Shown: positions 20 through 10,142 of the stretch, in pieces | Layout: each line of letters starts with the position of its first letter | Position numbering within the stretch: position 1 is the stretch's first letter | Source: a virus | Lineage: Duplodnaviria > Heunggongvirae > Uroviricota > Caudoviricetes | IMG/VR virus record: IMGVR_UViG_2671180673_000014 | Length of the DNA stretch: 10,142 nt | Strand: one strand, 5' to 3' | The notes under the pieces: model-generated | The model's input: only the letters and a program-made list of their open reading frames with translations | Databases searched by the model: none | Told to the model about the DNA's origin: nothing | Program-made: the position numbers and the translations under genes

Positions 20-1315
20 TTAATTTTTCATTGCTTCGTTATGGGGCATGGTTGGGGCAAACTCGCTTAACTGTGTATTTAACAAAGCTACCTGTGCATT
101 ATTGTTTTCAGACATCCATTTTCCGTATACCTGAAATACCATTTGCGCATCTGCATGGCCCATCTGGTTTGCTATAAATGCCGGGTTAGCACCAGCTGTC
201 AGCGACCAGCAGGCATAAGTATGTCTCGACTGATATGATTTTCGATGGCGGAGTCCGGCACGTTTTATCGCTGCGTCCCACATCTGCCTTATTGAGTCAA
301 CGGTAAAATGGTCACCATAATTTTTTACTCTCGCTGACACTTCAGGTTGAAAAACAAAGGTGCATTTTTGTTTTTCTGTTCTGCCATACTCTCTGAGGTG
401 AACATCAATGATATGCTCTTTGCTCAGTCTCGTTAATGTCATCTGACTCCGGAGAGCGTCGATTGCTGGCTTAATAAGATGAATGACCCGATTGGTTCCC
501 GCCTGTGTTTTTGGTACCGTGAAACGGTCTTTTGCTAAATTTCTCCTGATCATCATTGTTCCATTTTTCAGATCTATGTCCTCCCATCCAAGTGCACACA
601 GCTCACCAGGGCGAACTCCAGTATAAACAGAAACACACCATAAATTTTTTGCTTGCTGATTTCTGCACGCATCGATAAGACGGATAAATTCTTCCCGCGA
701 AAGAGGATCCGGAATGGTTCTTGATTCCTTTAATGGCGAGATCCCCTTAAACGGATTATCTGCCAGGTAACCGTTATCAACACCAAACTGGAACACGGCG
801 TTAAGATTTGTCATGTAATTATTTACAGTTACAGCCGATCTCCCTGGTTGTGTAACAATATAGTTACTTTTGGGGATCTGGTATCCAGTCAGTAACTCTT
901 TACGAACCTCCAGTAATTTTTCTTTATTAATCGATGAGGCAAGATTTTTTTCACCGATTATGCTCAGGATATTTTTGATGACGGCACGGTATGTGTTGAG
1001 TGATGTTTTGGCGACTTCAGTTTCTTTCAGTGCCAGAAATTTTTCAGCCAGTTCTTTTATGGTTAAATCTTGTCGGGCCTCACCAAATTTTTCCAGATTG
1101 CGTGAGGAGGGAAACTGTTTTGCATAGTCGAAAACACCAGTTTTTATTGCGTAACAAACAGAGGAGCGTAGTTCACCTGCAACGCGCCTGTTTTTTGCTG
1201 TGTCAGGAACCCCCAGATTTTCCCTGACTCTTACGTCTTTATAAACAAACCAGATACGTAATTTCCCTCCATGGTTTTCCACGCCTGTCGGATATTTCAT
1301 TTCAACTTCTCTCAT
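20..1315 (-). CDS. Phage integrase, tyrosine recombinase of the lambda Int family (431 aa as drawn; alternative in-frame ATG at 1298-1300 gives 426 aa)
   Basis: Long minus-strand ORF at the element edge. The translation shows the catalytic-domain signature: conserved Arg in TGVRPGE, the SRHTYACW box (H-x-x-R-like), and a C-terminal Tyr in VYGKW. It sits directly downstream of a small Xis-like ORF, the canonical xis-int arrangement. Stop TAA at 20-22. Confidence 0.9.
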   Translation of the reverse strand: MREVEMKYPTGVENHGGKLRIWFVYKDVRVRENLGVPDTAKNRRVAGELRSSVCYAIKTGVFDYAKQFPSSRNLEKFGEARQDLTIKELAEKFLALKETEVAKTSLNTYRAVIKNILSIIGEKNLASSINKEKLLEVRKELLTGYQIPKSNYIVTQPGRSAVTVNNYMTNLNAVFQFGVDNGYLADNPFKGISPLKESRTIPDPLSREEFIRLIDACRNQQAKNLWCVSVYTGVRPGELCALGWEDIDLKNGTMMIRRNLAKDRFTVPKTQAGTNRVIHLIKPAIDALRSQMTLTRLSKEHIIDVHLREYGRTEKQKCTFVFQPEVSARVKNYGDHFTVDSIRQMWDAAIKRAGLRHRKSYQSRHTYACWSLTAGANPAFIANQMGHADAQMVFQVYGKWMSENNNAQVALLNTQLSEFAPTMPHNEAMKN

Positions 1316-1334
1316 TAGTTAGTGTGGCTTTTAG

Positions 1335-1586
1335 TCAAGTAAGATGACGTCTTGGTCTCGCTGATGCCTGGCGCTCAATCCAGCGATCAATTTCTTCCAG
1401 GTTGTAAAAGCATGGACTGTTATCCCATGGCATACCGTCATGAGCGACATGCTTATATTCCCTTCCTTCCATAAACGATTTTTCCCGGGCCTTTTTTAAC
1501 GTACCTTTTTTTATTCCTTTCAGCGCAATTAACTGCTCTTCGGATACCCATTTGCCGGGAGAGACAATCATGATTACTTCGCTCAT
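1335..1586 (-). CDS. Excisionase-like small protein (83 aa; alternative start at 1569-1571)
   Basis: Small ORF immediately upstream of and co-oriented with the integrase, separated by 19 bp, with a basic lysine-rich N-terminal half. The call is by position and size; no motif was verified. Confidence 0.5.
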   Translation of the reverse strand: MSEVIMIVSPGKWVSEEQLIALKGIKKGTLKKAREKSFMEGREYKHVAHDGMPWDNSPCFYNLEEIDRWIERQASARPRRHLT

Positions 1587-1658
1587 CGATTTCTTTATCT
1601 CTTACATCAGACGAGCGCCGGTTGCAGAATACCAGTCACAACCGGCGACAGTTGAACA

Positions 1659-4130
1659 TTAAGAATCAGCCTGACTCGGGATCAGTTTTTGCCAGATAAC
1701 TGAAACGTATTTTGCCTGGTAACGGGCGTCATCAAGTGCATTATGGCGCTCACCTTCGAATGGAATAGCCGTTCTGGCATCGAAGTCTATGGCTTTCCCC
1801 AGCTCAACGATTGTGCGTACATCGCGATCGTTGTAGTAACGCCACGGGCAGGGGATCCCCTGCCGTTCGTATGAACGGCGCAAAATCGTGTTGTCGAAGT
1901 TGGCTCCATTTCCCCAAACCTGAACAAAAAATTCACCGGAGTTTTCGTCGATAAATTCTCGCAATTGTAACAGTGCATCATCTAACGGGATTTCATCGGT
2001 CATAATGGCAGATTGCGCTTCGCGTGATTGCTTAAGCCACCATTTAATGGTGTCCCGATCAATGACTCCGCCAGCAGTTTCCAGATCGATAGTCTTACTA
2101 AATTCCGGTCCCATATCTCCGGTTTGCGGATCGAAAAATATTGCACCTATTGAGATGATCGGGGCATCAGGATTTTTTCCCATGGTTTCAAGGTCGATCA
2201 TTAGATGGTCACACGTCCTGCTGGTGGATGTGATTTCGTGATGACCGTTCACCTTAATTGGGTGATCTGCCGTCTCGCCAGTTTCATTATCGCTATTGTG
2301 ATGCTGATTGCCGCCAGTGTTCTCCTTGTGTGGATGTTCAGCGCCTTCCATTTCCTCCGGATCATCTTCCTGAACTTCAACCTGATACTCTTCATCGAAT
2401 GTTTCTTGGTATGTTGCGTCGCCCATCACCGCGCCACAATCAGGGCAGTTGCCGCCGCCGGTCTGACCGCAGGCGGTGCAGACTTTTTCCACTTCCTGTT
2501 GCGCTACTGGTTCAGGCTGTTTCGTTTCTGGCTCGTTTTGTAACGCATTTGGACTGTTTTGTTCCGCTTTTTGGTAGTTCCGTTCCGATTCATGCTGGTT
2601 CTGGTTCACAGAATCGCGGGTCTGGAGCCCCTTAACCCATTTCGGATCATTCGGGTCACTAATCCCTTCAACAAATTCACCACGTGATGCAGCAAGCAAC
2701 TTATCGGCGTCAGGCTGGCTGATATTGGCTGCCTGCATAATTTTGTTTACTTCGTCAGCGGTAACTTTTATCGGCTCTGGTTGTTCTGAATCTTCAGCGG
2801 TATCTACATTTTGCGGTAAGCCCGTGTATGTGCCATTTTTTCGGGCAAAATATTCTTCTTTTGTGATTTCAGTGGCGCCAGCAGCCAGTGCCTTATCCAG
2901 ACCAGAGAGTTTGTTTGCGCGACCGTATTTTTCTCCGTCCTTATCTGCGAAGAGGAAATAGAACGGCCCCTCACGCTCTACAGATGGTTCAGCTTCCGGC
3001 GCGGTTTCATTTTTTGGGATATCAGATACCTCAGTTTCCACTGCATCAGTTTGTGTTTCTGATGACTGGAGAACATCAACAGTGCCCAGGTCTGTTTCTT
3101 CATTCTCAAACACGCCCTTTGTCGTCAGGTATTCGCAGATATATTTGTTCAGTGCTACGGGATCTTTGTGAATGTCGATCGGACGCTCACGGACAAGGCC
3201 AAAAATAGTTTGGCGGTCGTAGCGAAGGGCATCAGGCTGTTTGCGCATTGATGCCGAGATACGCTTCCAGTCTTCGCGGTCGTTGTCGATAACTTCTTTT
3301 TTTGCCCAGCGATGGATGCTGCCGTCAATGTTTCCGGCATCCACATCACTAGGCCAGAGAGCGTAGGCCAGTTCGTCATCCAGTGTTTTCCATGTCTGCT
3401 TGTATTCGCGATGAATGGCAGCAATGACCGGGCTGATTTTTCCTGTTGAATTTTCAGTGTACTGTTGATTGGCTCTGGCGCGGGCGAGATCAACAACAGA
3501 CGTGTATTTTCCGGTTTCCTTGCGTTCACCTTCGCGACGTTTTTTCCAGATGCGCATCTCTGCCTGAATTTCGGGCCATTTAGCACCAGGAATACATTTA
3601 TGCTTAACCCACCCAATGGCGTGCAACTTAAGCTCCGGATACATGGCGTTAACTTCTGGCATTTTCATCAACGCTTCAACGATATGTCCGTCGAATGTTG
3701 CCATGTCTTCCTGCAACAATTCCTGTGCGCTAATAACCATATCAACGGTGATGTTTTCACATGTGTCGAACTTAACCATGACAGCGTTCTGTACTTCAGG
3801 GGCCAGCTTGTCAAAAGTGACGTTCATCGGATCGGATTCAGTCTCAACCGGGACAAAAGAAGCAGACTCCTCATCCCAGCGGTTTTCCTGCATATATTCA
3901 GCATCCCATGAATCGAGGGCAGGGCGGGGTATGCCAGGTTTATCCTCGCAGACAATAAATTTATAAGCGCAGTCCTGAGCAGCCGGATAATGTTCCAGGA
4001 ATTGCCAGTGAAATTTTGCTCGAGCACGGCGTTCGTCGCCAGCTTCAATGGCTGTGGCTACAGCCACAGCGCCTTCTTCCCTTGTTGCCAGTTCGTCAGG
4101 AATAGCGGCGCAAATAAAGACTTTACTCAT
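1659..4130 (-). CDS. Exodeoxyribonuclease VIII-like large protein with C-terminal DnaQ-type (DEDDh) 3'-5' exonuclease domain (823 aa from ATG at 4128-4130)
   Basis: The ORF as drawn starts on TTG at 4166; the in-frame ATG at 4128-4130 is preceded by AGGT about 8 nt upstream, giving MSKVFICAAIPDELATREEG. The C-terminal ~180 aa carry DEDDh motifs: MIDLETMG (codons at 2181-2204), WGNGANFD and HNALDDARYQ. A C-x2-C-x7-C-x2-C knuckle (VCTACGQTGGGNCPDCG, about 2427-2483) and a long acidic linker lie upstream. It occupies the lambda exo/bet position between ydfD and xis. Confidence 0.8.
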   Translation of the reverse strand: MSKVFICAAIPDELATREEGAVAVATAIEAGDERRARAKFHWQFLEHYPAAQDCAYKFIVCEDKPGIPRPALDSWDAEYMQENRWDEESASFVPVETESDPMNVTFDKLAPEVQNAVMVKFDTCENITVDMVISAQELLQEDMATFDGHIVEALMKMPEVNAMYPELKLHAIGWVKHKCIPGAKWPEIQAEMRIWKKRREGERKETGKYTSVVDLARARANQQYTENSTGKISPVIAAIHREYKQTWKTLDDELAYALWPSDVDAGNIDGSIHRWAKKEVIDNDREDWKRISASMRKQPDALRYDRQTIFGLVRERPIDIHKDPVALNKYICEYLTTKGVFENEETDLGTVDVLQSSETQTDAVETEVSDIPKNETAPEAEPSVEREGPFYFLFADKDGEKYGRANKLSGLDKALAAGATEITKEEYFARKNGTYTGLPQNVDTAEDSEQPEPIKVTADEVNKIMQAANISQPDADKLLAASRGEFVEGISDPNDPKWVKGLQTRDSVNQNQHESERNYQKAEQNSPNALQNEPETKQPEPVAQQEVEKVCTACGQTGGGNCPDCGAVMGDATYQETFDEEYQVEVQEDDPEEMEGAEHPHKENTGGNQHHNSDNETGETADHPIKVNGHHEITSTSRTCDHLMIDLETMGKNPDAPIISIGAIFFDPQTGDMGPEFSKTIDLETAGGVIDRDTIKWWLKQSREAQSAIMTDEIPLDDALLQLREFIDENSGEFFVQVWGNGANFDNTILRRSYERQGIPCPWRYYNDRDVRTIVELGKAIDFDARTAIPFEGERHNALDDARYQAKYVSVIWQKLIPSQADS

Positions 4131-4222
4131 TTGTTTTAACCTCATGACAGATTTAAGGATGAACAAATCCCTGCCATTGCTGGCATATAAGAATGAAACC
4201 GGATATTTATTACGGAACTGTT

Positions 4223-4414
4223 TTAAAGACCTGCCGGGATTTCGATATTATCCTGGTGAATAACTTTATCGACCGGGTAACAGTTACCGGGAATTTTCTG
4301 TTCGGTTGCTGCAGTCATACACTCCTGCATTGTCCTGTGAACACTGACTGCAATATCAACTGGCTCTCCGGAAACAAGAAAAACTGTCAGAACAAGCACA
4401 AATGCTGAATTCAT
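4223..4414 (-). CDS. ydfD: YdfD-like small lysis protein (63 aa) with N-terminal hydrophobic segment
   Basis: Translation MNSAFVLVLTVFLVSGEPVDIAVSVHRTMQECMTAATEQKIPGNCYPVDKVIHQDNIEIPAGL matches my recollection of K-12 YdfD. Its ATG (4412-4414) overlaps the dicB TGA stop (4411-4413) as ATGA. Confidence 0.8.
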   Translation of the reverse strand: MNSAFVLVLTVFLVSGEPVDIAVSVHRTMQECMTAATEQKIPGNCYPVDKVIHQDNIEIPAGL

Positions 4415-4599
4415 TGTGCACATCCTTTTGGCATCAGACGTAAACGAGCCAGCATTGAAACAATGCATATTTTATTTAATAGCTCCCGTTCGTGTTTTCT
4501 CTTGTTAATGGCATCTTCAGTAAATACTGGGTTACTGATAGTGACACCAATTTCAAAACAACCTTCAGACGTATTAACGTTTGGTAATAACGTTTNCAT
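4411..4599 (-). CDS. dicB: Cell division inhibitor DicB (62 aa); codon 2 contains an ambiguous base (n at 4596)
   Basis: Translation M-X-TLLPNVNTSEGCFEIGVTISNPVFTEDAINKRKHERELLNKICIVSMLARLRLMPKGCAQ. ATG at 4597-4599 with GAGGA 9 nt upstream on the minus strand. The longer 97-aa ORF in the track is an upstream in-frame extension without a credible start. Confidence 0.85.
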   Translation of the reverse strand: MXTLLPNVNTSEGCFEIGVTISNPVFTEDAINKRKHERELLNKICIVSMLARLRLMPKGCAQ

Positions 4600-4773
4600 T
4601 ATCGCGTCCTCAACAATGAATTTTGTGATGCNGTGCCTGGTGCNTCCAGGTGACGTTAACCAGTTAACAATTAACGCCGGATACAGAGAATCCACCCATA
4701 ACACTGTTTTTGGTTTTAACTGTTCCGCGTGCGCTCAGCCGCATTCACCNCATCACAAAATTCACTTTAAAAA

Positions 4774-4826
4774 GGGCGGCAGAGCAGTCACGGAGTAAAA
4801 CTGATACCGCCAAACGTCACCAGAAA
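4774..4826 (-). ncRNA. dicF: DicF small regulatory RNA (53 nt), antisense regulator of ftsZ and other mRNAs
   Basis: The reverse complement of 4774-4826 is TTTCTGGTGACGTTTGGCGGTATCAGTTTTACTCCGTGACTGCTCTGCCGCCC, followed by TTTTTAAAG. This matches the K-12 DicF sequence as I recall it, including the GGCGG...CCGCC 3' hairpin and U-tract. It lies between ydfC and dicB as in the K-12 dicB operon. Confidence 0.85.
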
Positions 4827-5166
4827 ATTGATAACAGAGGGCGTTGCAGCGGGGTTGTCACTTAAGCGTATGGTCAACCTGACAACCCGGTGTCCTCAAC
4901 GGGGAAGGAATAACCCCGCCATACTNACCGCCGCGCCATTTCGCGGNTTGCCACAACCGGAAGCGCACGGTCGACGAAAATTTAACGACAGGCTATCTAT
5001 GAACCAGCTACCTCGCCGTGCGCTTTCGCGTTATGGTCTGACTTTTCAGGGAAATATCCTTTCAGTAAACTGTCAGTTCCGGATGCGCACCCGTGTCCGG
5101 CGCACGCACTCCACCTCACCCGTGGAGAACTCCTTAATTACTAACCTTAGCTTTGTTGATTAGCTA

Positions 5167-5385
5167 CTAACGCGGGTATGTAATCATTCTGGCAATGCTT
5201 AATGCCGCTGCTTTTTCCAGATTGGTGATATCCTGCTCCAGAGCGGACAGATTTTCAGCCTGCTTAGCCCTGGCTTCATTAGCCCATTTCAGATCCTGCG
5301 CTGCATTAATTTTCTGGCGCATCCACTCATAAAGTTCATCATCGGTATAGTCTGGCGCGATGATGACGGGTTCTCGTTTCTGCAT
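5167..5385 (-). CDS. ydfC: YdfC-like protein (72 aa)
   Basis: ORF MQKREPVIIAPDYTDDELYEWMRQKINAAQDLKWANEARAKQAENLSALEQDITNLEKAAALSIARMITYPR. ATG at 5383-5385 is preceded by GAGGAA. Position and sequence match my recollection of K-12 YdfC. Confidence 0.8.
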   Translation of the reverse strand: MQKREPVIIAPDYTDDELYEWMRQKINAAQDLKWANEARAKQAENLSALEQDITNLEKAAALSIARMITYPR

Positions 5386-5414
5386 ACTGATTCCTCGCGG
5401 TGCTGTTTCGCTTA

Positions 5415-5543
5415 TCAGCCGTTAGATTTTGCCGAACTGGAAAGCGCCTGTTTAAACTCACTGAAGCTGAGAGCTTCTTCGCCTTCGGCAAGGCCTTCGA
5501 AGTATTCTTCGTAAGCCTTTTCCATGATTGTGTCGAAATCCAT
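5415..5543 (-). CDS. ydfB: YdfB-like small protein (42 aa); absent from the supplied ORF track because it is below the length cutoff
   Basis: Hand translation of the minus strand from ATG at 5541-5543 gives MDFDTIMEKAYEEYFEGLAEGEEALSFSEFKQALSSSAKSNG, ending at TGA 5415-5417. AGGTGA lies upstream. The start is 1 nt after the ydfA stop. Confidence 0.7.
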   Translation of the reverse strand: MDFDTIMEKAYEEYFEGLAEGEEALSFSEFKQALSSSAKSNG

Positions 5544-5544
5544 A

Positions 5545-5700
5545 TCACTCACCTGAGTTTCTTTCCAGCCAGCGACGGGCACCATTTTCGGTTTTAAACG
5601 TTTTGCTTTTGGTATACGTCATTGCGGTGAACGTGCCGTCCTGGTTTGGAAACACGCCGTACACCAGAGATTCGTTGTTGCCAAGATCGATAGTATCCAT
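5545..5700 (-). CDS. ydfA: YdfA-like small protein (51 aa)
   Basis: ATG at 5698-5700 preceded by GAGGT. Translation MDTIDLGNNESLVYGVFPNQDGTFTAMTYTKSKTFKTENGARRWLERNSGE. The longer track ORF (to 5778) is an upstream extension running into the promoter. Confidence 0.75.
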   Translation of the reverse strand: MDTIDLGNNESLVYGVFPNQDGTFTAMTYTKSKTFKTENGARRWLERNSGE

Positions 5701-5777
5701 GCTGACCTCATTTCCCCTTAACGCTGGGGTAGCGGAACTGTTTGCTGAGAACACCGTGCGGTGTGTTGATGCAAACA

Positions 5778-5806
5778 AGATTAGCCATGACTAACATATC
5801 GGTCAA
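5778..5806 (-). promoter_or_regulatory. Sigma70-type promoter of the leftward dicB operon
   Basis: On the minus strand: -35 TTGACC (plus 5801-5806), 17-bp spacer, -10 TAATCT (plus 5778-5783). It lies about 70 nt upstream of ydfA, and operator-like palindrome O3 overlaps the -10. Confidence 0.55.
5781..5794. promoter_or_regulatory. Operator-like palindrome O3 (TTAGC-CATG-ACTAA) within the dicB operon promoter
   Basis: 14-bp inverted repeat with the same architecture as O1 and O2 in the dicA-dicC intergenic region. It overlaps the -10 and spacer of the leftward promoter. Confidence 0.5.
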
Positions 5807-5866
5807 GTGATTTTGTATGCTATAGCTAACATGATTGATGTAGTAAAAGATAACTCATTGATGATG

Positions 5867-6274
5867 TTATCTTTTATTTGTCCGCTGACGGGCTTTTAGT
5901 AATTCTTCAAAGAGTTTATTGAAGTTTTTTACTCGAGCTCGCATTTCGGCGAGCTGGGTATCCTGTTCTGATTCTGGCAGTGCATTAAACAGCTCAAGGA
6001 GCTCTAGTTCTTTGGGGGATAAGGCAACTGGCTTCTCAACAGGTGGTGTTGGTTGCTTGTCTTCATCGCCAAATAGAATCCATGTTGGTGAGCATTGCAA
6101 TACTTTGCTGAGGGCAAAAAGGTTCTTCCCTGTAGGTTCACTATCACCCCGTTCCCATTGTGATACAGACACATGGGAGATTTTCAGGGCTTTAGCAAGA
6201 GACCTTTGGGTGTGTTTGAGGTTTTTCCGACGATACCTGATGCGTTCGCCGATAGTTAAATTTTTTGTTTCCAT
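5867..6274 (-). CDS. dicA: DicA repressor, XRE-family HTH, cI-like (135 aa)
   Basis: Translation METKNLTIGERIRYRRKNLKHTQRSLAKALKISHVSVSQWERGDSEPTGKNLFALSKVLQCSPTWILFGDEDKQPTPPVEKPVALSPKELELLELFNALPESEQDTQLAEMRARVKNFNKLFEELLKARQRTNKR, with the helix-turn-helix at HTQRSLAKALKISHVSVSQWE. It is divergent from a Cro-like gene. Confidence 0.9.
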   Translation of the reverse strand: METKNLTIGERIRYRRKNLKHTQRSLAKALKISHVSVSQWERGDSEPTGKNLFALSKVLQCSPTWILFGDEDKQPTPPVEKPVALSPKELELLELFNALPESEQDTQLAEMRARVKNFNKLFEELLKARQRTNKR

Positions 6275-6276
6275 AG

Positions 6277-6290
6277 TTAGCTAATGCTAA
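6277..6290. promoter_or_regulatory. Operator-like palindrome O1 (TTAGC-TAAT-GCTAA) next to the dicA start codon
   Basis: Perfect 5-bp inverted arms with a 4-bp spacer, 3 bp from the dicA ATG (6272-6274). Confidence 0.5.
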
Positions 6291-6296
6291 ATCGTA

Positions 6297-6325
6297 TTGA
6301 CTATGTTTTTGTTAACATCTATCTT
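6297..6325 (+). promoter_or_regulatory. Sigma70-type promoter of dicC (rightward, Cro-like transcription)
   Basis: -35 TTGACT (6297-6302), 17-bp spacer, -10 TATCTT (6320-6325); predicted start site about 6332, with dicC ATG at 6358. Confidence 0.5.
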
Positions 6326-6343
6326 GTTAGTTATGACTAACAA
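6324..6343. promoter_or_regulatory. Operator-like palindrome O2 (TTGTTAGT-TATG-ACTAACAA; core TTAGT-TATG-ACTAA at 6327-6340)
   Basis: Perfect 8-bp inverted arms with a 4-bp spacer, overlapping the -10 and start site of the dicC promoter. Confidence 0.55.
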
Positions 6344-6357
6344 TAAAGGTGTTTTAA

Positions 6358-6588
6358 ATGCTTAAAACTGACGCTCTTTTGTATTTCGGTTCAAAAACAA
6401 AACTTGCACAAGCAGCAGGTATTCGTTTGGCTTCGCTTTATAGCTGGAAAGGGGATTTAGTTCCCGAAGGTCGCGCGATGCGTCTACAGGAGGCATCTGG
6501 CGGGGAGCTTCAGTATGATCCCAAAGTTTATGATGAATATCGTAAGACGAAGCGGGCGGGGCGGTTGAACAATGAAAATCACTCCTGA
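6358..6588 (+). CDS. dicC: DicC, Cro-like regulator (76 aa)
   Basis: Translation MLKTDALLYFGSKTKLAQAAGIRLASLYSWKGDLVPEGRAMRLQEASGGELQYDPKVYDEYRKTKRAGRLNNENHS. AGGTG lies 7 nt upstream. Divergent from dicA. Confidence 0.85.
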   Translation: MLKTDALLYFGSKTKLAQAAGIRLASLYSWKGDLVPEGRAMRLQEASGGELQYDPKVYDEYRKTKRAGRLNNENHS

Positions 6589-7093
6589 ACAGGCTCGTGA
6601 GGCTCTGGATGCCTGGATATGTCGACCAGGAATGACACAGGAGCAGGCGACGATATTAATCACTGAAGCATTCTGGGCTTTGAAAGAGCGCCCGAACATC
6701 GATGTTCAGCGTGTCACATATGAAGGTGGCGCGATTGATCAGCGAGCGCTTGGCGTTAATCGAGTGAAGATATTTGAACGCTGGAAGGCTATCGACACCA
6801 GGGATAAGCGTGAAAAGTTCACGGCGCTAGTGCCTGCAATTATGGAGGCTATCCGGATTAATGATTTCAGGTTGTATCGTGAAATTACTGACGGAAAAAG
6901 CATCACGTGCATGATCGCCGGGTTAAACAAAGAATATGGCGATGTGGTGGAGTCCGGACTGCTTTTTGCTGATCCTGCCGTAGTGGATCGTGAAACTGAC
7001 GAACTTATAGAAAAAGCAATTGCTTTCAAACTTGCGTATCGACAGCAATACCAACAAAAAGCTGGATGGAATTATGAGCCTTCTTTTTGCTGA
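6572..7093 (+). CDS. YdaT-like protein, putative CII functional analogue (173 aa)
   Basis: Position immediately after the Cro-like gene, overlapping the dicC 3' end by 17 bp. The segment DKREKFTALVPAIMEAIRINDFRL resembles the corresponding motif of Rac YdaT as I recall it. The family assignment is tentative. Confidence 0.5.
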   Translation: MKITPEQAREALDAWICRPGMTQEQATILITEAFWALKERPNIDVQRVTYEGGAIDQRALGVNRVKIFERWKAIDTRDKREKFTALVPAIMEAIRINDFRLYREITDGKSITCMIAGLNKEYGDVVESGLLFADPAVVDRETDELIEKAIAFKLAYRQQYQQKAGWNYEPSFC

Positions 7094-8079: not shown

Positions 8080-8502
8080 GTGGCAAAAGTTTTTACACAA
8101 GAAGAGCGGGAAAAAATTAAATGGCAGGTGGTGGAACTCGTGCGCCAGAGCGGCCGTGAGACGTTACGGCAACTGGAAGCTAAAACAGGTGCGACTAGAT
8201 ATCTGATGAGCGTTCTTGCCAGAGAGCTGGTAGCCAGTGGCGATGTATACAACTCCGGCTACGGGTTATTCCCCTCTGAACAGGCGCGTAAGGACTGGCA
8301 AAACGCCCGCAAAAAACTCTCGAGGGCAAAGGTGAAGAAACCTGCTGTGGTTGATCCGGACCTTATCTGGTCATCACCTGACGGAGAAATACGTCGCTAC
8401 GACAGTCGCCTAAACATAATCTGTCGCGAGTGCCGGAAGAGCGAAGTTATGCAGCGCATACTGGCTTTCTATCAGGGTAATTTTCAGGACGTGGCGCAGT
8501 GA
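8080..8502 (+). CDS. Hypothetical protein (140 aa, GTG start) with a possible helix-turn-helix segment
   Basis: GTG at 8080 is preceded by AAGGGGG. The segment RETLRQLEAKTGATRYLMSVLARELV looks HTH-like. Its TGA stop (8500-8502) overlaps the GTG start of the next gene (8499-8501). Confidence 0.55.
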   Translation: MAKVFTQEEREKIKWQVVELVRQSGRETLRQLEAKTGATRYLMSVLARELVASGDVYNSGYGLFPSEQARKDWQNARKKLSRAKVKKPAVVDPDLIWSSPDGEIRRYDSRLNIICRECRKSEVMQRILAFYQGNFQDVAQ

Positions 8503-8945
8503 GTGCACCGGCAACCATTCTTGATATGTGCTGTGGCAGCCGCATGTTCTGGTTCGATAAGTCTGACGAACGGGCGATATTCAGCGATATCAGAAAAGAA
8601 GGATACACATTACGCAATGGGAGACGCTTGATTATCAGCCCTGACATTATCGCAGATTTTCGTGCATTATCATTTGCAGACGCATCTTTTTCGATGGTTG
8701 TATTAGACCCTCCGCATCTTGAGAGTGTTGGTGATAACGCCTGGATGGGAAAGAAATATGGACGGCTGAATAAAGATGCCTGGCGTGATGATTCGCGACA
8801 GAGATTTAAAGAAGCCTTTCGGGTGTTGAGGCCGCACGGCGTTCTGATTTTTTAATGGAATGAAACGCAAATACCGGTAAGCCAGATTCTGGCACTGACA
8901 GACAGAAAACCTGTTATCTGTCAACGAACAGGGAAAAAACGATAA
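8499..8945 (+). pseudogene. Small SAM-dependent (DNA) methyltransferase interrupted by an in-frame TAA at 8853-8855; the frame continues for 29 codons to TAA at 8943-8945
   Basis: The translation carries motif I-like ILDMCCGSR and motif IV-like VVLDPPHL. After the ochre codon the same frame reads WNETQIPVSQILALTDRKPVICQRTGKKR. TTT-TAA-TGG is one substitution from TTT-AAA-TGG. Confidence 0.5.
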
Positions 8946-9117: not shown

Positions 9118-9228
9118 ATGCGAAAGTTCAAAATTATTATTGAAACGGGAATAGCTGGTGGAGATTTTGAGGATGTATTCGAAGTGGACGATGACGCAAC
9201 ACCTGAGGAAATTCATGACGGAGCATAA
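9118..9228 (+). other. Short acidic ORF (36 aa, MRKFKIIIETGIAGGDFEDVFEVDDDATPEEIHDGA) behind an SD-hairpin-ATG arrangement
   Basis: AGGAGG at 9089-9094 is followed by the perfect hairpin CCGCCC-GAAA-GGGCGG (9095-9110), then ATG at 9118. Looping out the hairpin would bring the SD to about 7 nt from the start. The ORF is too short for a confident coding call. Confidence 0.25.
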
Positions 9229-9892: not shown

Positions 9893-10142
9893 TAGACTGG
9901 ATTTGCCCCTATATTTCCAGACATCTGTTATCACTTAACCCATTACAAGCCCGCTGCCGCAGATATTCCCGTGGCGAGCGATAACCCAGCGCACTATGCG
10001 GATGCCATTCGTTATAATGCTCGAACGCCTCTGCAAGGTTCTTTGCTGCCGTTAACCCGTCTGGTTTGGGCATGATACTGATGTAGTCACGCTTTATCGT
10101 TTTCACGAAGCTCTCTGCTATTCCGTTACTCTCCGGACTCCG
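9893..10142 (-). mobile_element. Right end of an IS2 (IS3-family) insertion sequence, continuing beyond the window
   Basis: The terminal sequence tagactggatttgcccctatatttccagacatctgttatcacttaaccc matches the IS2 right inverted repeat as I recall it; the exact boundary is uncertain between 9893 and 9898. The adjacent minus-strand frame encodes the InsD C-terminus. Confidence 0.8.
9909..10142 (-). CDS. insD: IS2 transposase OrfB (InsD), C-terminal part only; the N-terminus lies outside the window
   Basis: The minus-strand frame, open to the window edge, reads [77 protein letters not shown]. This is the end of the IS3-family integrase-core (rve) domain, with the HSALGY box. Stop TAG at 9909-9911. 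Confidence 0.8.

Follow-up and report, generated by a model that had tools for sequence, protein, structure and literature searches.

The gene at positions 1659-4130 on the minus strand of a stretch of 10,142 nucleotides (nt), taken as one strand from a virus of the Caudoviricetes (IMG/VR record IMGVR_UViG_2671180673_000014; the whole stretch is hereafter called the window), encodes an 823-residue protein of the YdfE family. In this protein a scaffold shared with the RecE protein of the Rac prophage carries a DnaQ-type (DEDDh) nuclease domain at the C-terminal end, in the place where RecE has a PD-(D/E)xK nuclease. Comparison of the family members revealed a cassette rule: a RecT-family gene comes next where the scaffold bears a PD-(D/E)xK domain, and xis and int come next, directly, where it bears a DEDDh domain or no nuclease. 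The gene is already annotated and catalogued, and its status of a nuclease without an annealase was catalogued in 2025 (Zheng, Casjens, Davidson, Amundsen and Smith 2025, PMC12315714). We correctly recover a gene class that had been catalogued before, and claim no discovery. What is added is the exact mosaic boundary, the rule relating the C-terminal type to recT, an analysis of selection resolved by domain and a negative result on a recognisable fold of the scaffold.

The C-terminal domain is of the DEDDh exonuclease type

The Pfam profile PF16473 (Rv2179c-like) matched residues 642-813 of the protein over positions 2-177 of its 177 (E 2.4e-67; 226.5 bits against a cut-off of 27), and a weak match to RNase_T was also obtained (E 4e-4). 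The Pfam families PDDEXK, YqaJ and DUF3799 gave no match in the protein, nor did residues 600-866 of RecE give a BLASTP match in it. The residues of the Exo I (DxE), Exo II (D) and Exo III (Hx4D) motifs are all present (D646, E648, D746, H796 and D801) and line up with those of T4 DexA and of two standalone lambdoid homologues in columns that are invariant (alignment A3). Among 18 sequences (alignment A1), four of the five catalytic residues were invariant and E648 was conserved in at least 90%. T4 DexA (8KEL/8KEN) was also the sole sequence match in the PDB (E 1.5e-6). The AlphaFold2 model of residues 471-823 had a predicted local distance difference test (pLDDT) score of 55 overall and of 60-87 in the nuclease domain, and its top Foldseek matches were REXO2, 3'hExo and Orn, with a probability of 0.9 but E-values of only 0.014-0.13. 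Since this model is only moderately confident and the Foldseek matches are weak, though of the right family, the DEDDh assignment rests on the hidden Markov model (HMM) evidence. The protein is very likely a 3'-5' exonuclease, with dependence on Mg2+ predicted from its family, and DNA would be its probable substrate.

A 3'-5' exoribonuclease that takes part in the trimming or turnover of phage or host transcripts, such as DicF precursors, is very unlikely. The family PF16473 is named for the Mycobacterium tuberculosis exoribonuclease Rv2179c, many copies of the gene carry this kind of name at NCBI and the top Foldseek matches act on RNA. However, these structural matches come from a low-confidence model (pLDDT 55, E ~0.01), the only solved structure matched by sequence is that of the DNA exonuclease DexA, and Rv2179c itself was not matched at E <0.01. 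In addition, the close standalone homologues sit in DNA recombination modules, and the scaffold is shared with RecE, a DNA enzyme.

The relationship with DexA bears on another alternative, a prophage defence or superinfection-exclusion nuclease of the 'HREX' type, which would degrade the 5-hydroxymethylcytosine (5hmC) DNA of incoming T-even phages. EcD, a standalone DexA homologue of E. coli, protects against T4 when it is expressed from a plasmid, and digests T4 DNA but not unmodified double-stranded DNA (Kang et al. 2025, PMC12153337). The C-terminal domain studied here has the Pfam family and the catalytic residues of EcD and DexA, and the gene is extremely widespread in E. coli. However, the residues proposed for 5hmC recognition are not kept in the MAFFT alignment (DexA W152 corresponds to Y766 and D169 to A780; the region around D169 is loop-rich, which makes this a weak negative), and the tetramer residue D90 of DexA is kept as D718, unlike in EcD, which has an alanine. 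Furthermore, the gene belongs to a DicA-repressed lytic operon with no same-strand promoter-like site upstream, and the domain is fused to the RecE scaffold instead of standing alone. The PADLOC match was just to a generic Cas-associated DEDDh (E 1.8e-5), and was rejected as evidence that the protein belongs to a defence system. Altogether, we regard this alternative as unlikely.

The homology to RecE ends at a domain boundary

BLASTP aligned residues 262-627 of the protein with residues 278-592 of Rac RecE (E 3e-62). Over the stretch that comprises the DADKLLAASRGEFV.GISDPNDPKWVKG block, the zinc knuckle and the acidic linker the two sequences hardly differ, and the alignment ends right before the nuclease domain of RecE. 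At the DNA level (megablast), homology to recE is confined to nt 1420-1867 of the gene, with 86-91% identity, and the end of the RecE-homologous DNA in the linker, at a domain boundary, is a mosaic joint of the kind usual in lambdoid phages. The RecE equivalog model of NCBIfam, NF007259, scored 281.6 bits against a cut-off of 1269, its positions 271-600 of 877 being aligned with residues 246-623.

The first-pass annotation of this DNA had read the C-terminal domain as DnaQ-type DEDDh rather than PD-(D/E)xK and had pointed out a zinc knuckle and a strongly acidic linker, and all of this was upheld (C551-x2-C554-x7-C562-x2-C565; 28% D+E in residues 576-640). It had also called the protein ExoVIII-like and had expected profile matches to an ExoVIII N-terminal domain and to an Rv2179c-like C-terminal domain. 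The likeness stands for the central region delimited above, and the Rv2179c-like match was obtained; by contrast, the N-terminal part is of the YdfE_N type, and the ExoVIII N-terminal domain PF06630 gave no match in the protein at E-values up to 1.

The presence of a following recT gene goes with the C-terminal type

The modularity of the family was assessed by domain-wise BLAST, by Pfam and from the precomputed Pfam architectures of four members. A homologue search with the full protein was filled by E. coli copies 88-94% identical and offered no diversity. A HMMER search with residues 1-640 against 1.84 billion representatives gave 247 clusters only, so that the RecE/YdfE family must be considered narrow. 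Its members have either YdfE_N or the ExoVIII domain PF06630 at the N-terminus, a common YdfE_C region, the near-invariant RGEFxxGISDPxDPKW motif, an optional zinc knuckle and, at the C-terminus, a DEDDh domain, a PD-(D/E)xK domain or nothing recognisable.

Rac RecE, which joins PF06630 to a PD-(D/E)xK domain, is followed by recT. The member P0131 (YdfE_N, YdfE_C and a DUF3799 PDDEXK domain) is followed by an overlapping gene of the RecT family (PF03837, E 2e-36); its product belongs to this family by Pfam, and the BLASTP comparison with Rac RecT was not significant. In P0128, located in a Rac-like operon with kilR, ydaE and sieB, a RecE N-terminus 100% identical to that of Rac is joined to a DEDDh domain 99% identical to that of the window protein, and the next genes are an xis-like gene and int. 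P0122 has PF06630, which P0128 carries as well, followed by YdfE_C and a DEDDh domain, and precedes an integrase gene. P0126, with YdfE_N and YdfE_C but without nuclease, precedes xis and int. As to the type found in the window, xis is the next gene in eight independent loci, which represent three or more integration sites and five phages, and recT was absent next to the gene in nine further related loci. In this exchange a "DEDDh domain" takes the place of "nuclease domain plus recT". Because the RecT-family gene follows only the PD-(D/E)xK relatives, the window gene is not half of an ordinary RecET pair. A 703-residue protein, P0201, has about 500 N-terminal residues of Rac RecE in frame with RecT sequence and has lost the nuclease domain; it is apparently the product of a deletion that fused recE to recT.

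The first-pass annotation had assigned the gene to the exo/bet slot, had seen no annealase partner there and had described the counterpart in the Qin prophage of strain K-12 as split by IS2. The three statements proved right: the gene has the last early-left (dicB) operon position, adjoining xis and int; no RecT, Bet or Erf partner, nor one of the Rad52 or Sak4 type, was found among the open reading frames (ORFs) examined by Pfam in the window or in the near-identical Escherichia phage PhiR42_1; and K-12 ydfE consists of the first 767 nt of the gene, after which comes IS2. Two places had been named where a partner might still lie. Next to the gene in related prophages, an annealase gene occurs only after a PD-(D/E)xK-bearing relative and after none of the DEDDh variants; elsewhere in the prophage, no RecT or Bet homologue was found in the remaining non-structural ORFs of PhiR42_1.

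The scaffold is folded in part and is maintained by selection

The reading frame spans 1659..4166 (-). The ATG at 4130, preceded by GAGG 9 nt upstream, yields the 823-residue protein and is the start chosen in other genomes by PGAP (the NCBI annotation pipeline). The product is 100% identical to XSB42569.1 of PhiR42_1, and PHROG 2082 ('exonuclease') covers residues 1-822. The AlphaFold2 model of residues 1-470, obtained with 32 diverse family members, had a mean pLDDT of 81 and contained three folded units (residues 1-225, 245-345 and 390-435) with disordered acidic segments between them. The N-terminal parts correspond to YdfE_N (PF27430) and YdfE_C (PF27432), newer Pfam families that are precomputed for this protein family, and a middle domain of the YdfE_C type occurs with both N-terminal types. 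In the model of residues 471-823 order was confined to the nuclease domain, a short stretch in the conserved block and a weak hairpin where the zinc knuckle lies.

The core of the conserved block, RGEF(V/I)xGISDPxDPKW, is nearly invariant across the RecE/YdfE family and nearly identical in Rac RecE, and its R, G, I, S, D, P, D, K and W residues were at least 90% conserved in 20 diverse members (alignment A4). It is surrounded by disordered sequence and resembles a short linear motif to which some partner would dock. The knuckle is also present in RecE, and its cysteines did not vary among 18 close homologues; the architecture does not require it, because some relatives that bear the DEDDh domain lack it (P0122, P0142 and P0242).

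These features give circumstantial weight to a counter-defence role, in which the scaffold would bind a complex of host immunity or repair and a nucleic-acid signal or guide would be eliminated by the DEDDh domain: the scaffold is conserved, its short linear motif is invariant within disordered sequence and the C-terminal domain is swappable. The gene lies, moreover, at the int-proximal end of the operon, which Zheng et al. treat as outside the canonical position of the Rec module (PMC12315714). Such a role is nonetheless distinctly unlikely, given that the protein has no similarity to known anti-defence proteins and that versions of the scaffold exist without a nuclease or with the PD-(D/E)xK domain, the latter working in recombination.

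Ratios of nonsynonymous to synonymous substitutions (dN/dS) were determined pairwise for four prophage copies that are 88-95% identical in DNA. A fifth copy, 99.6% identical, was left out as too close, and the copy of phage 813R8 was left out because its N-terminal half is too divergent. The values for each domain are listed in Table 1; they reached 0.4-1.1 in the three disordered linkers and were low (0.02-0.25) in the folded domains. This indicates that all the folded parts are kept by selection and that the protein is not debris.

Of 5426 complete E. coli genomes, 3537 (~65%) had the gene with a coverage of at least 80%; these carriers had two matching places in the median and ten at most, full-length and partial matches being counted alike. 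The gene is named "exonuclease" or "3'-5' exoribonuclease domain-containing protein" in the databases. Among phages it was found in PhiR42_1 (100%), HannyBb (99.8%), Tritos (99.0%), mEp460_ev081, Evi, PPompW and Stx2a-converting phages; Tritos, HannyBb, mEp460_ev081, Evi and PhiR42_1 are viable phages that were isolated or induced. It is hardly credible that the gene is a mosaic remnant without function, produced by illegitimate recombination in a prophage undergoing decay. The interruption of the K-12 copy by IS2 and the many fragments in the databases would fit such an origin, but the gene is intact in the 3537 genomes mentioned, its catalytic residues are invariant, purifying selection acts on every folded domain and drift is seen in the linkers, and plaque-forming or inducible phages carry it. 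A decaying pseudogene was ruled out by the dN/dS values and the prevalence.

Recombination functions and Chi sites

No annealase domain was detected by Pfam in the window ORFs between int and the replication genes. Pfam searches were likewise negative for RecT/Bet, Erf, Rad52, Sak4, SSB (single-stranded DNA-binding protein), Gam and Abc2, both among the ORFs of the early operon in the window and among the other non-structural ORFs of PhiR42_1. The window and PhiR42_1 have an early-left nuclease gene and no single-strand annealing protein (SAP), SSB or anti-RecBCD function, as in the class represented by phage Tritos. In Table 1 of Zheng et al. (PMC12315714), Tritos is the prototype scored as nuclease +, SAP -, SSB - and anti-RecBCD -. 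The article also describes DnaQ-like 3'-5' nucleases in lambdoid Rec modules, sporadic DnaQ-type nuclease genes near int and "RecE-2" proteins without a nuclease domain.

According to the same article, top-strand Chi sites are enriched in lambdoid phages without anti-RecBCD function and gather at the right end, and RecBCD can help such phages; the growth of at least one Rec-less phage, LLS, is better with RecBCD. The window contains two Chi sites (GCTGGTGG) on the phage top strand, at 2220-2227 (+) and 9154-9161 (+), against 0.22 expected on both strands. PhiR42_1 has six against 1.5 expected, a number reached by none of 100 shuffles; on its cos-linear map four are on the top strand and two on the bottom strand, all within the right 42%. 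Tritos has nine top-strand sites, eight of them on the right, and two on the bottom strand. From base composition, about 0.9-1.0 top-strand and 0.4-0.5 bottom-strand sites are expected in either phage, the values for Tritos being roughly 0.9 and 0.4. These counts fit the published pattern, which ranges from 21/6 to 7/2 (top/bottom) within the class (PMC12315714), PhiR42_1 being at the low end.

Another gene of PhiR42_1 (15873-16799, +), corresponding to a position outside the window and just upstream of Q, is YdfU, with a DUF968/HNHc_6 assignment; it is present in Tritos too. Its match to the family of the RecA-dependent nuclease Ref of phage P1 is faint (E 0.003, below the cut-off). YdfU may matter to a phage that relies on host RecA.

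Proposed role of the exonuclease

A composite picture, which we hold to be evenly poised, is that the gene provides a lytic-cycle 3'-5' exonuclease acting on DNA ends in a phage that relies on RecBCD, Chi and RecA of the host. Because the gene is the last one of the DicA-repressed dicB operon, its product would belong to the lytic cycle, with expression upon induction or lytic growth and not in the lysogen. The protein would consist of a noncatalytic scaffold (YdfE_N, the YdfE_C helical domain, the small beta domain, the GISDPxDPKW block and the optional zinc knuckle) bearing a DexA-like DEDDh domain through a long acidic tether. Its predicted activity is Mg2+-dependent 3'-5' degradation, most likely of DNA ends or 3' tails, as in T4 DexA. 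Recombination-dependent replication would probably proceed through host RecBCD and RecA, because annealase, SSB and RecBCD inhibitor are all missing and correctly oriented Chi sites are clustered rightward. The exonuclease would then most plausibly trim 3' tails or flaps, which could leave blunt ends on which RecBCD can load or tidy recombination and replication intermediates; the 3' tails needed by an annealase would not be generated by a DEDDh protein. The more specific role, the blunting of 3'-tailed ends for RecBCD loading, is put forward tentatively.

Several points weigh against this proposal. The most serious objection is the need of RecA for 3' tails, which a 3'-5' exonuclease would destroy. 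Lysogens usually hold other prophages, which are a possible source of an annealase in trans. The Chi enrichment of PhiR42_1 is modest, PF16473 bears the name of an exoribonuclease, and the scaffold, three quarters of the protein, had no recognisable fold or partner. In the literature no functional study of ydfE or of Rv2179c-like phage proteins was found. Finally, cellular DnaQ-like exonucleases usually inhibit recombination, and one-gene 'modules' are suspect, as Zheng et al. point out in both cases (PMC12315714).

A host-takeover or scavenging nuclease, which would degrade fragments of host DNA in lytic growth for nucleotides, is quite unlikely. A role in the scavenging of host DNA is documented for T4 DexA (PMC12153337). 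The operon also encodes the host-directed toxins dicB, DicF and ydfD; however, no recognisable endonuclease that could provide host-DNA ends was present in the early ORFs of the window or in PhiR42_1, and the large conserved scaffold in common with RecE would be left unexplained. We know of no wholesale degradation of host DNA in the growth of lambdoid phages.

It is also conceivable, although doubtful, that the RecE/YdfE scaffold is a targeting platform with swappable 'warheads' and that the DEDDh version is not a recombination enzyme but a weapon or a 'RecBCD-feeding' factor. As a weapon, it would act between phages or in counter-defence, for example by destroying modified T-even DNA or a nucleic-acid immune signal; as a feeding factor, it would blunt 3'-tailed ends so that Chi-rich phages exploit the RecBCD of the host. 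The first-pass annotation had deemed plausible, though unproven, a role outside classical recombination, in host DNA processing or anti-defence.

The gene is among the most widespread prophage genes of E. coli and is carried by Stx2a-converting and other enterohaemorrhagic E. coli prophages. The family represents a natural experiment on the RecE scaffold, one platform with three C-terminal states, and the function of the DEDDh version bears on the purpose of the enigmatic 600-residue N-terminal part of RecE, which matters for linear-linear recombineering in direct cloning. It also bears on a recent proposal, according to which lambdoid phages rich in Chi leave recombination to RecBCD, and on whether the DexA-like nucleases found in bacterial genomes serve phage replication or defence.

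The window and its neighbouring genes

The window is an arm of a lambdoid prophage of the Qin/Tritos type. It matches PhiR42_1 (PV340562.1) from 1046 to ~10943 with one substitution and six ambiguous bases (N) as the only differences, and diverges after window position 9898. Beyond this point, the ORF 9909-10106 (-) reads like the C-terminal end of the transposase/integrase core of an insertion sequence, and another insertion-sequence arrangement in this strain seems likely for 9899-10142. The order of genes on the minus strand is the dicA-like repressor, ydfA/ydfB/ydfC, DicF, dicB, ydfD, the exonuclease gene, xis and int. The exonuclease gene is the last of the early-left (dicB) operon, with no gene between it and xis (Table 1). 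DicF sits between ydfC and dicB, likewise in K-12 Qin and in phage Tritos. In K-12 the transcript from the dicB promoter covers ydfD and ydfE, and the repressor is DicA (PMC11430063). A promoter and terminator scan of 1200-6400 gave fewer promoter-like sites than shuffled sequences and none on the minus strand upstream of the exonuclease gene, hence no sign of a promoter of its own, which is weak evidence.

Table 1. Features of the window, with the domains of the exonuclease and their dN/dS values
Feature	Positions	Strand	Basis or remarks	dN/dS
int, tyrosine integrase	20..1315	-	ORF list; annotation of the identical PhiR42_1 gene	
xis, excisionase (DUF1233), directly downstream of the exonuclease gene	1335..1586	-	Pfam PF06806, E 1.6e-31	
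Complete gene, 823-residue YdfE-family exonuclease	1659..4130	-	stop codon 1659-1661; ORF list; PHROG 2082; PhiR42_1 identity	
DEDDh 3'-5' exonuclease domain, residues 641-823	1662..2210	-	PF16473; D646, E648, D746, H796, D801	0.11-0.23
Chi site GCTGGTGG within the exonuclease gene	2220..2227	+	conserved in PhiR42_1 and Tritos	
Acidic low-complexity linker, residues 576-640	2211..2405	-	28% D+E, 5% K+R; pLDDT ~30	0.8-1.1
Zinc knuckle C551-x2-C554-x7-C562-x2-C565	2436..2480	-	regular expression on the translation	0.16-0.27 (with conserved block)
Conserved block DADKLLAASRGEFVEGISDPNDPKWVKG, residues 471-500	2631..2720	-	alignment A4; Rac RecE comparison	0.16-0.27 (with knuckle)
Small beta-hairpin/helix domain, residues 390-435	2826..2963	-	AlphaFold2 pLDDT 92-95	0.02-0.06 (strongest purifying selection in the protein)
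Disordered acidic linker, residues 346-389	2964..3095	-	pLDDT <50; 27% D+E	0.5-1.0
Helical middle domain, YdfE_C type, residues 245-345	3096..3398	-	AlphaFold2 pLDDT 91-97; common to RecE 278-340	0.08-0.18
N-terminal domain, Pfam YdfE_N type, alpha/beta and helical, residues 1-225	3456..4130	-		0.08-0.12
ydfD, DUF1482 lysis protein, directly upstream of the exonuclease gene	4223..4414	-	Pfam PF07358, E 4e-26; annotation of relatives	
dicB, cell-division inhibitor	4411..4599	-	Pfam PF05358, E 2e-39	
DicF small RNA, full-length antisense	4774..4825	-	Rfam RF00039, 76.7 bits against a gathering score of 48	
DicA-like repressor controlling the operon	5867..6274	-	ORF list; annotated cI/DicA in relatives	

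The six ambiguous bases are all in the dicB-DicF region (4596, 4632, 4644, 4750, 4926 and 4947), where PhiR42_1 has T, A, C, A, T and G, respectively, and one of them falls in codon 2 of dicB. Two plus-strand ORFs of 111 residues, 4463-4798 and 4828-5163, lie opposite dicB and DicF and are probably not genes; hypothetical proteins of PhiR42_1 in the same region and strand (5508-5843 and 5900-6208) had no Pfam match. At the position of cII, a 173-residue ORF (6572-7093, +), named 'cII' in PhiR42_1, has a YdaT_toxin domain (Pfam E 4.5e-5) and not the fold of lambda CII. A 118-residue ORF (8499-8855, +) gave only fragmentary matches to methyltransferase domains and is probably a short or truncated S-adenosylmethionine methyltransferase.

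Comparison with known systems

Rac recE occupies the same early-left slot as the window gene, just upstream of xis and int, and the two proteins have a central region in common, with YdfE_C-like helices, the GISDPNDPKW block, the zinc knuckle and the acidic linker. RecE has a C-terminal PD-(D/E)xK 5'-3' nuclease (residues 564-866 according to a review), which is missing from the window protein, and it is paired with recT, whereas the window gene is followed by xis. The predicted polarities are opposite, 3'-5' in the window protein and 5'-3' in RecE. The 'RecE-2' proteins of Zheng et al. (PMC12315714) lack a nuclease domain, unlike the window protein, whose domain is intact; they are probably the nuclease-less YdfE_N and YdfE_C proteins (P0126 and others), which have the same scaffold and the same slot before xis and int.

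T4 DexA, 27% identical to the C-terminal domain, and the E. coli homologue EcD ('HREX') share its Pfam family and DEDDh residues. They are standalone proteins of ~180-230 residues, whereas the domain studied here is the C-terminal quarter of an 823-residue protein and is without the DexA insertions. The standalone DnaQ-like exonucleases of lambdoid phages, such as epsilon34 gp34, are 56-61% identical to residues 641-823 and are, like the window gene, early-left-operon genes of temperate enterobacterial phages. The gene of gp34 (56% identical) belongs to a module with a Rad52-family annealase (identified by Pfam), SSB, exonuclease and Abc2, and lies between SSB and Abc2; the window protein, in contrast, is fused to the RecE/YdfE scaffold and has no such neighbours.

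Among the closest known systems is that of Tritos, whose protein TRITO_27 is 99.0% identical to the window protein and is encoded in the same operon (cI-ydfABC-DicF-dicB-ydfD-exo-xis-int). TRITO_27 would be the nuclease scored by Zheng et al., because it is the only nuclease-like gene annotated in the Tritos operon. Nothing material separates the window from the Tritos class, which is without SAP, SSB or anti-RecBCD function and has top-strand Chi sites clustered on the right.

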